DNA from: a virus
DNA length: 13,254 nt
Direction: 5' to 3' (one strand)
UHGV virus genome: UHGV-0215671
Position 1 is the stretch's first letter. Each line of letters opens with the position of its first letter. The translations under genes were made by a program, and so were the position numbers. Shown here piece after piece: positions 9,727 through 9,858 of this stretch. The notes below the pieces were generated by a model, which had not been told where the DNA came from, ran no database searches, and saw only the letters and a program-made list of their open reading frames with translations.

Positions 9727-9858
9727 GTTTATTATCTTAAGTGCTACCATTACACCAACTCGACATCTGCCGAGTGAAGGAATCGAACCTTCGCCTTTTC
9801 TTTACCGGAGAAATAGATTGTTTAAGTTTTGCTGTAAACGGTCTTCTGTAAATTTGTT
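9727..9858 (-). ncRNA. Non-canonical tRNA-like element (candidate Y-RNA-like RNA), repeat unit d
   Basis: 8-bp terminal pairing AGACCGTT (9729-9736) with AACGGTCT (9847-9854); consensus T-arm GAAGG-TTCGATT-CCTTC from plus 9786-9802; anticodon-like hairpin TTTCT-CCGGTAA-AGAAA; D-arm-like GGTGTAATGGTAGCAC 3' of the T-arm; no acceptor partner at canonical distance. Confidence 0.35.

Follow-up and report, generated by a model that had tools for sequence, protein, structure and literature searches.

The Ro60/Y RNA particle, a conserved machine for RNA surveillance that is also a major autoantigen in humans, has so far been traced only through recognisable TROVE proteins. YrlA RNAs contain a permuted tRNA-like domain, in which a terminal stem encloses a T arm, an acceptor-like stem-loop, and a D arm (Chen et al. 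2014, PMC4201824), and the 5′ strand of YrlA and Y RNAs carries the Ro60-binding motif GNCGAAN0-1G (PMC4201824, PMC12135203). The known phage cases of Ro60 and Y RNA are true TROVE proteins with the CGAA motif (PMC4201824, PMC12135203). In Salmonella, the corresponding genes form the repair operon rsr-yrlBA-rtcBA (PMC4201824, PMC7790460). The Class I RNAs of Dictyostelium are a further group of small RNAs, characterized by a covarying terminal stem of 6 base pairs (bp), a 5′ G, the 11-nucleotide (nt) motif CCUUACAGCAA, and a 3′ CUGU (Kjellin et al. 2021, PMC7919456); within the motif, positions U3, C6, C9, A10, and A11 are near-invariant in Dictyostelia (PMC7919456). The present analysis concerns element A, an RNA element in a 13,254-nt stretch of the virus genome UHGV-0215671 (the whole stretch is called the window below), and its comparison with these systems.

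Element A occupies positions 9714-9851 on the minus strand. It is probably a structured non-coding RNA of a tRNA array, the closing module of which would bind a neighbouring protein of predicted Ro60 fold, forming an RNA-repair or quality-control particle. By analogy, it would work like the Ro60/Y RNA particle, but it is not a member of the YrlA family. Its resemblance to YrlA is one of arrangement and context. The T arm, the acceptor-like hairpin, and the D arm follow one another in the permuted order, and are closed by a stem of both ends; the nucleotides of the tRNA elbow are conserved; several RNAs are present per locus, some of them, like YrlB, without the full tRNA body; the gene for a predicted Ro60-type ring protein adjoins the RNA on the same strand; and a link to RtcB is found in bacteria. 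The YrlA-type arrangement proposed in a preliminary description of this locus is, in this respect, borne out: T arm, closed acceptor hairpin, D arm, and terminal stem are arranged as reported in PMC4201824. Unlike YrlA, element A lies inside an array of 25 tRNAs, and the partner presumed for it belongs to DUF2828/DUF7788 and is not a TROVE protein by sequence. The comparison with Ro60 (TROVE2)/Rsr, including Ro60-Yrl1/2 of phage phiLo (PMC12135203), is similar: a ring with a von Willebrand factor A (vWA) domain and a MIDAS (metal-ion-dependent adhesion site) is predicted, and small RNAs with a terminal stem lie beside the gene, whereas the 471-amino-acid protein has no TROVE match and the RNA recognition motif differs. 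With canonical tRNAs, element A shares a T arm, a D arm, a 7-bp acceptor-type helix, an anticodon-like hairpin of 5 bp with a 7-nt loop, and the location in a tRNA array; it differs in its circularly permuted order and in an acceptor that a loop closes off, leaving no free CCA end.

Architecture and conservation of element A and its closing module

The window derives from a Felix O1-like myovirus; the segment 9300-12300 is 98.6% identical to Felixounavirus LF82P5, and at least 80% of it is covered by 244 phage records. ARAGORN identified 25 tRNA genes in the window, spanning 5657-10690 and all on the minus strand, and tRNAs were the sole families matched when the whole window was searched against Rfam at the gathering threshold. 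Element A is flanked by tRNA-Lys (9492-9567) and tRNA-Asp (10026-10103). The preliminary description had placed the unit at 9727-9858. The features that it named, a T arm, an anticodon-like hairpin, a D arm 3′ of the T arm, and a terminal pairing, are all present in the sequence, but the unit is read on the minus strand and its span is that given above.

Element A combines a closing module with a permuted tRNA-like module in 138 nt, and its order, from 5′ to 3′, is closing helix, CAGCAA loop, anticodon-like hairpin, T arm, acceptor hairpin, D arm, and closing helix. The ends form an outer 4-bp helix, UUAC/GUAA (9851-9848 with 9717-9714). Between this and the closing helix lie, on the 5′ side, the bases AGA of an internal loop (9847-9845) and, on the 3′ side, a conserved G that is unpaired (9718). 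The closing helix pairs AGACCGU (9838-9844) with ACGGUCU (9719-9725), and the terminal pairing can be written as AGACCGU(U)/(A)ACGGUCU, 9844-9838 with 9725-9719. Directly 3′ of the first helix strand lies the single-stranded UUA-CAGCAA (9829-9837), the presumed protein-recognition motif, so that the 5′ strand of the element reads CAGAAGACCGUUUACAGCAA. The bases CUUA then lead to the hairpin UUUCU-CCGGUAA-AGAAA (9797-9813), which resembles an anticodon arm or a variable arm and is aligned as an anticodon arm by the Rfam tRNA model. After AGGC, there follow the T arm GAAGG-UUCGAUU-CCUUC (9776-9792), the 7-bp acceptor-like hairpin ACUCGGC-AGAU-GUCGAGU with its loop AGAU (9758-9775), a U8-like U (9757), and the D arm GGUG-UAAUGGUAG-CACU (9740-9756), which lies 3′ of the T arm and is succeeded by UAAG. 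Minimum-free-energy folding yields this four-way junction, too, with the terminal helix closing it.

In line with the preliminary assignment, no normal tRNA was called at the element by ARAGORN, and the Rfam tRNA model (RF00005), whose gathering threshold is 29 bits, matched only part of it, at 22-23.8 bits. A permuted-tRNA descriptor matched the minus strand of element A at 9792-9740. R1, a covariance model of the closing module in whose seed element A was not included, found it at 9714-9845 with 23.4 bits (E 0.0016, filters off), and the best noise in the window with this model scored 10.7 bits. The record of Escherichia phage REP5 (OQ174504.1; 111-241 of our locus L171) annotates the element as a 131-nt ‘tRNA-Thr GGT’, which is probably a tRNA-finder artefact arising from the anticodon-like hairpin and the T arm.

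The closing module is shared with three further minus-strand elements, B, C, and D. The word GGTCTTCTG occurs in four exact copies in the window, all within the stretch that carries these elements, and each copy marks the 5′ end of a unit; with up to one mismatch, 10 matches were observed, a count that was reached by none of 200 shuffles. All four units follow the plan outer 4-bp helix, AGA, AGACCnn, (A/U)U(U/A) CAGCAA, interior, nnGGUCU, G, outer helix. The outer helices vary yet stay complementary (UUAC/GUAA, GAGC/GCUC, UUGC/GCAA, and UGAC/GUCA), as do the variable pairs of the inner helix. The module common to A-D thus comprises a variable 7-bp helix, UUACAGCAA, an unpaired G on the 3′ side, and a 3′ CUG; the sequence that follows the helix ends in UUACAGCAA or in AUUCAGCAA. 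Element B (9859-9941; R1 44.1 bits, in the seed; folded) joins the module to a 7-bp hairpin, the loop of which starts with GCCAAU and which resembles an acceptor minihelix. Element C (10292-10357; R1 43.5 bits; RF01414 24.0 bits; fold z-score -2.8) has a short interior, and element D (10446-10524; R1 41.6 bits; RF01414 19.1 bits; folded) an interior hairpin. These three are 66-83 nt long, and the tRNA-like interior is confined to A among the four elements of the window. Element A had been singled out as the best candidate partner of the neighbouring protein; it is not the sole candidate, as the presumed protein-binding module is present in B-D as well, and their R1 scores are higher.

Alignments of related elements from other genomes revealed covariation in the closing helix. 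Among 43 short elements, which had been chosen for pairing (alignment A2), several helix positions show all four Watson-Crick pair types, with 117 doubly changed cells. In 73 elements from bacterial genomes, which lay outside the R1 seed and whose alignment was fitted to R1, the 7-bp helix is 99.2% paired and 170 cells are doubly changed. The single-stranded motif of these independent elements is nearly fixed (C in 73, A in 69, G in 73, C in 73, A in 71, and A in 70), and a G follows the helix in 70 of the 73. CAGCAA is invariant in A2 and likewise in an alignment of 21 tRNA-like elements (A3). In a check free of selection for pairing, a DNA pattern that fixes only three of the seven helix pairs was used, and 74 of its 84 matches were found to pair at all seven positions.

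The tRNA-like module was followed through related phages. Identity of element A is 96-99% across about 210 Ounavirinae (Felixounavirus) records; in Suspvirus and Mooglevirus it falls to 74-90%, at which the element can still be recognised. Between genera, the sequence of the acceptor-like hairpin is swapped wholesale and the hairpin is retained: it reads ACACGU-UACG-GCGUGU in Suspvirus and Sf13, and CCCUUC-GCCAAACA-GAAGGG in Moogle and Mordin. The Moogle loop, like that of many distant members, has a GCCA resembling a discriminator base plus CCA. The anticodon-like loop varies among relatives (CCGGUAA, CGGUAA, CUGGUAA), and is missing in Moogle and Mordin. In A3, compensatory changes were seen both in the closing helix (99% paired) and in the T stem (97% paired). 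Invariant or nearly invariant positions are GUUC.A..CC, which spans the T loop and stem, the GG of the D loop, and the U8-like U. The Ounavirinae D stem is offset by one position relative to that of the distant elements, whose register pairs only 48% of cells in the Ounavirinae copies, and no covariation is claimed for the D stem. These sequence comparisons indicate that the tRNA-like module is under selection for structure.

An open reading frame (ORF) of 85 amino acids on the plus strand (9620-9877) runs antisense over element A, and is listed as a ‘hypothetical protein’ in RefSeq and as phrog_14433. In Suspvirus and Mooglevirus this frame is broken, leaving frames of 44-49 amino acids at the longest, and in Felix O1 its C-terminus is frameshifted; the RNA fold is kept in each case. 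Most likely, it is not a gene, and both public annotations, the 85-amino-acid ‘hypothetical protein’ and the 131-nt ‘tRNA-Thr’, most likely represent the RNA described here. Two other plus-strand ORFs that lie over tRNAs, 10206-10445 and 10360-10611, resemble this case.

A neighbouring protein of predicted Ro60 fold and its co-occurrence with the RNAs

Element A lies about 1 kb downstream, on the same strand, of the gene for the presumed partner (10856-12271, minus strand), a protein of predicted Ro60 fold that is not a TROVE protein by sequence. Its 471 amino acids match Pfam DUF2828 and DUF7788, and, weakly, VWA_2; Pfam TROVE was not matched, NCBIfam gave nothing useful, and no PADLOC defence model was matched. 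The AlphaFold2 model (predicted local distance difference test score, 90) consists of a ring of alpha-helical, HEAT-like repeats and a vWA domain with a complete MIDAS, and the 12 best matches retrieved by Foldseek were all Ro60/TROVE chains, aligned over the full length. Sequence identity to Ro60 is 11-16%, and the protein is about 50-60 residues shorter. On the strength of the predicted structure, the Ro60-like character attributed to the product of 10856-12271 in the preliminary description can be retained. The protein is called ‘RNA-binding protein’ by PHROGs and RefSeq, which shows that annotators had some hint of its nature. The DUF2828 family comprises 8,895 clusters at 50% identity (E<=0.001).

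Co-occurrence of the RNA with the protein family was examined in 80 IMG/VR phage loci that encode homologues with 39-99% identity; the fractions obtained are lower bounds, since the loci span few kb. A descriptor consisting of T arm, closed hairpin, and D arm gave non-tRNA matches on the gene strand in loci L012, L015, L018, L019, L024, L039 (two), L060, L074/L075, L076 (three), and L082. Folded with their flanks, these were all closed by a helix of unrelated sequence, with (U)U(N)CAGCAA on the 5′ side and a 3′ end of the form ...CCUG(A/U)UA. In gene-oriented loci, 15 permuted tRNA-like modules inside the closing module were located on the gene strand and none on the other. Tandem tRNAs accounted for false matches to the permuted descriptor in L021, L035, and L056, which were rejected. 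In most phage loci, the closing module flanks the gene without a tRNA body. Early descriptors of helix plus motif were noisy, with 108-157 background matches per strand, and were superseded by R1.

With R1, 79 matches at E<=1 were found in 886 kb (76 phage loci and the window), 78 of them on the gene strand. The same strand preference was observed in an independent set of 80 GTDB loci with homologues, from Clostridia, Chloroflexota, Proteobacteria, candidate phyla, and one archaeal bin, none of which had been used for R1: all 94 matches shared the strand of the gene; most were located 0-500 nt upstream of it, and tandem groups of two to four were frequent. In the reverse direction, the DNA pattern fixing three helix pairs retrieved its 84 IMG/VR matches from 80 stretches, 37 of which contain a DUF2828 homologue within few kb, and the RNA is on the strand of the gene in 40 of 41 cases. 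The pairing of the element with a Ro60-like protein family, as first proposed, is therefore supported by same-strand co-occurrence across many unrelated genomes, from which we infer binding.

The bacterial loci provide a functional context. In 21 of the 80 bacterial loci (for example, L212 5498-6727), the DUF2828 gene is followed immediately downstream, in the same orientation, by a gene for RtcB (PF01139, E 6e-55), a linkage that mirrors the Salmonella rsr-yrlBA-rtcBA operon. Regulators with WYL/WCX domains lie upstream of the gene in 12-13 of the 80, with L252 1953-2882 and L243 309-1580 among the examples of context. In Clostridia, for example in Dysosmobacter segnis, RNAs of 110-140 nt just upstream of the gene score 42-53 bits with the Rfam tRNA model; they have the acceptor with CCA, the D arm, and the T arm in normal order, and a hairpin with (C)UAACAGCAA replaces the anticodon arm. 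Such normal-order ‘tRNAs’ upstream of the DUF2828 gene were located in Clostridia and other genomes at L241 3098-3221, 3489-3604, and 3744-3864, in L239, L244, and L253, and at L209 796-904. They are the other circular permutation of the same shape. Because normal-order tRNA bodies carry the (C)UAACAGCAA hairpin in place of the anticodon arm, there is, in our reading, good evidence that the closing module is a handle attached in place of a tRNA's anticodon arm. In a Micavibrio bin, a freshwater-1 RNA (RF02979; L209 1007-1068; 82.7 bits, above threshold), itself without CAGCAA, lies upstream of the DUF2828 gene, amid CAGCAA elements.

A longer DUF2828 subfamily (540-615 amino acids) was found in giant-virus bins and on contigs encoding SUI1, GT25, and a family X DNA polymerase, with R1 elements nearby. 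Tandem CAGCAA elements near these long homologues lie at L259 8398-8463 and 8658-8721, L148 8420-8772, and L130 3300-3776. The gene content of the contigs suggests that they belong to giant viruses.

The interiors enclosed by the closing module are diverse. A hairpin with a loop starting (G/C)GCCAA(U), which resembles an acceptor minihelix with the discriminator and CCA closed into the loop, recurs in element B (9885-9912, minus strand), at L039 4278-4345, L076 7452-7515, and L008 8462-8523, and in element A of Moogle and Mordin. Other interiors are found at L009 3133-3233, L012 149-281, L015 1265-1374, and L024 5734-5829. One class of about 100 nt carries CCUUUCUGGAGGGGAAAG, and classes of about 160 nt and about 245 nt occur in L036, L050, L053, L064, and L078. 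These conserved non-tRNA interiors look like distinct effector classes. Elements of about 150 nt with CUGCAA for CAGCAA, located just downstream of the gene in L031, L032, L043, L051, L063, L072, L073, and L080, are candidate members of the family.

Proposed mode of action and alternative explanations

In the proposed mechanism, element A and elements B-D would be excised from the transcript of the tRNA array, and the 7-bp closed acceptor of A may be a substrate of RNase P, as in the YrlA of M. smegmatis (PMC4201824). The closing module, that is, the helix with its CAGCAA handle, would serve as the binding site for the Ro60-fold protein, much as the helix of Y RNAs does on Ro60, and the variable interior would form the effector end. 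The permuted body of A retains the nucleotides that form the tRNA elbow, and this tRNA mimic might recruit tRNA-handling enzymes or steer the particle to tRNA-related substrates. By analogy with Rsr-YrlA-RtcB, the most likely role of such a particle would be quality control or repair of tRNA or other RNA during infection, which is suggested because the contexts are phage tRNA arrays and bacterial RtcB operons. For A, the tRNA-shaped effector might serve tRNA surveillance or repair, or counter-defence.

Taken as a whole, the data point to a large family of Ro60/Y-RNA-like particles, of which no published description was found. Likewise, in the papers that could be searched, nothing was found to connect Ro60 or Y RNAs with DUF2828, the CAGCAA RNAs, or Felix O1-like phages. 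Burroughs and Aravind are reported to have treated ROT/TROVE-RtcB systems in 2016, and DUF2828 may already have been unified with TROVE. If the proposed reading is correct, Ro60/Y RNA particles would have a second, very large branch (about 8,900 DUF2828 clusters), with an RNA handle of its own and swappable effectors that include tRNA mimics in both permutations. A widespread domain of unknown function would acquire a function, unannotated or misannotated spacers in phage tRNA arrays would be explained, and these arrays would be tied, through the bacterial RtcB operons, to RNA repair or quality control. A testable hypothesis on the protein partner of the Dictyostelium Class I RNAs would also be gained.

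Several observations weigh against this reading. The YrlA model RF02553 (gathering threshold, 69 bits) gave no match on element A, whether the window was searched at the gathering threshold or 2.6 kb and then 171 nt were searched at E<=10, and the Rfam Y_RNA model gave none at E<=10; RF02553 itself works, giving 38.9 and 28.7 bits for related elements in L076. The CGAA motif GNCGAAN0-1G is absent, with UUACAGCAA in its place. Membership in the YrlA family is thereby contradicted, and to the letter these searches speak against the Y RNA assignment of the preliminary description; they do not refute the mode of action that it proposed. Neither phmmer nor a profile search against PDB sequences retrieved a Ro60 chain with the 471-amino-acid protein, whose kinship with Ro60 is read from predicted structure, and the link between RNA and protein is drawn from co-occurrence alone. 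In 43 of the 80 pattern-derived stretches no DUF2828 gene is present; most of these are tRNA arrays on contigs that extend beyond the stretch, but the gene may be truly absent from some. The alignments A2 and A4 were selected for the helix or fitted to it, by which the paired percentages are inflated. The folding energy of element A is unexceptional (z-score, -1.5), so that folding energy alone is no evidence for the structure, and the z-scores in general were uninformative. Two sigma-70-like promoter matches on the minus strand, 10837-10809 and 10746-10717 (within 10717-10837), lie between the protein gene and the tRNA/RNA array; they were obtained by a consensus scan, in which such matches were not commoner than in shuffles, and are weak evidence of a promoter.

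Other explanations can be set against the same observations. A decayed or rearranged tRNA gene without a function of its own, whether a pseudogene or what is left of two tRNAs in tandem, would be at home in a tRNA array, and would account for the partial Rfam tRNA match of 22-23.8 bits, for the GenBank ‘tRNA-Thr GGT’, and for the false descriptor matches produced by tandem tRNAs. Such a remnant would not be expected to stay 96-99% conserved in some 210 records and recognisable in other genera, nor to keep its elbow nucleotides and an acceptor-like hairpin whose sequence changes entirely, and the same permuted layout recurs inside the same CAGCAA module in unrelated phages whose proteins share 40% identity. 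This explanation is very improbable. Still less credence can be given to the view that the region encodes the 85-amino-acid plus-strand protein (9620-9877, phrog_14433) and that the RNA features are incidental: the ORF exists, has a RefSeq entry, and belongs to a PHROG family, but the frame is broken or frameshifted in relatives in which the RNA fold persists, and the PHROG family itself is explicable by conservation of the DNA that encodes the RNA.

Two further explanations grant the RNA a function, and dispense with the protein. The closing module could be a processing or stability signal of the tRNA-array precursor, such as a nuclease site or a protective stem, that acts independently of DUF2828 and co-occurs with it through shared tRNA arrays. 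The position of the elements between tRNAs would fit such a signal, as would the lack of a DUF2828 gene from the stretch in many pattern-derived loci that consist of tRNA arrays. It is nevertheless unlikely, given that in many phage loci the RNA adjoins the gene and no tRNA is present (L010, L013, L016, L017, L020, L022, L023), that bacterial RNAs are directly upstream of the gene and, in 94 of 94 cases, on its strand, and that the single-stranded CAGCAA is invariant across phyla with differing nucleases. Phage tRNA arrays have been tied to the countering of defences that target tRNAs. Element A might accordingly be a free-standing tRNA decoy for a host anticodon nuclease, or for a defence that modifies or senses tRNAs, with the Ro60-fold protein unrelated or acting only as a chaperone; its tRNA elbow, its anticodon-like loop, its place in a phage tRNA array, and the failure of the protein to match any PADLOC defence model are consistent with this. 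A decoy would leave unexplained elements B-D, which have the module and no tRNA body, as well as the many other interiors, and the anticodon-like loop is unconserved and missing in Moogle and Mordin, which makes this explanation, too, rather improbable. The RNA-protein particle outlined above remains the preferred reading.

Resemblance to Dictyostelium Class I RNAs and minor features

The closing module bears a close resemblance to the Class I RNAs of Dictyostelium. The positions that are near-invariant there (U3, C6, C9, A10, and A11) are invariant in CAGCAA elements. RNAs of either group are about 60 nt long, occur in many copies, and have a short covarying terminal stem of free sequence with a conserved G at the 5′ end; the motif directly adjoins the 5′ strand of the stem, the interior varies, and CUG(U) stands on the 3′ side. 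The exact CCUUACAGCAA is found in L013, L017, L020, and L022. No Rfam family reaches its threshold on the CAGCAA RNAs; sub-threshold matches to RF01414, the Rfam model of Class I RNAs built from Dictyostelium (14-29 bits), fell only on CAGCAA elements in every search, with 14.3 bits for element A and 17.8-28.9 bits for related phage elements, all below the gathering threshold of 41.5. In CAGCAA elements, in contrast to Class I RNAs, the stem is one nucleotide nearer the motif, and the hosts are phages, bacteria, and giant-virus-like contigs, to which the DUSE promoter element does not apply. Class I RNAs measure 42-65 nt in Dictyostelia, compared with 138 nt for element A and 66-83 nt for B-D.

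It is tentatively suggested, as a possibility that we consider doubtful on present evidence, that CAGCAA RNAs and Class I RNAs belong to one family with DUF2828/DUF7788, of predicted Ro60 fold, as its conserved partner. An ancient Ro60/Y-RNA-like particle, present also in phages, bacterial RtcB operons, and giant-virus-like genomes, would then have Class I RNAs as its eukaryotic branch. These RNAs have been published as confined to Dictyostelia, abundant, and developmentally regulated, and they would gain the status of such a branch if the shared-family reading were true. The sole known direct partner of Dictyostelium Class I RNAs is the RRM protein Rnp1A/CIBP, and a preprint by the authors of the Class I RNA work lists GuaB, NdkC, CIBP, and the uncharacterised DDB_G0281243 as proteins pulled down with DdR-21. 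Within the shared-family reading, DDB_G0281243 would be a candidate for the missing Class I partner; the link between Dictyostelia and DUF2828 is a lead.

A few minor features of the window and of the related loci were also recorded. The minus-strand segments 8918-8996 and 8998-9187 contain tRNA-like sequence (Rfam tRNA, 31.7 bits), with weak matches to tmRNA (transfer-messenger RNA) models and an anticodon-like CUUCUAA. ARAGORN made no call at 8918-9187 in the window, and calls tRNA-Arg(tct) at the equivalent place in related phages; an atypical or degenerating tRNA-Arg may lie there. A group I intron (RF00028, 71.5 bits) is present at L019 11696-11922, in a phage locus that also bears the RNA family. 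Genes for tmRNA lie within few kb of the DUF2828 gene in L025, L028, L031, L032, L051, and L082, and at L257 1961-2344.

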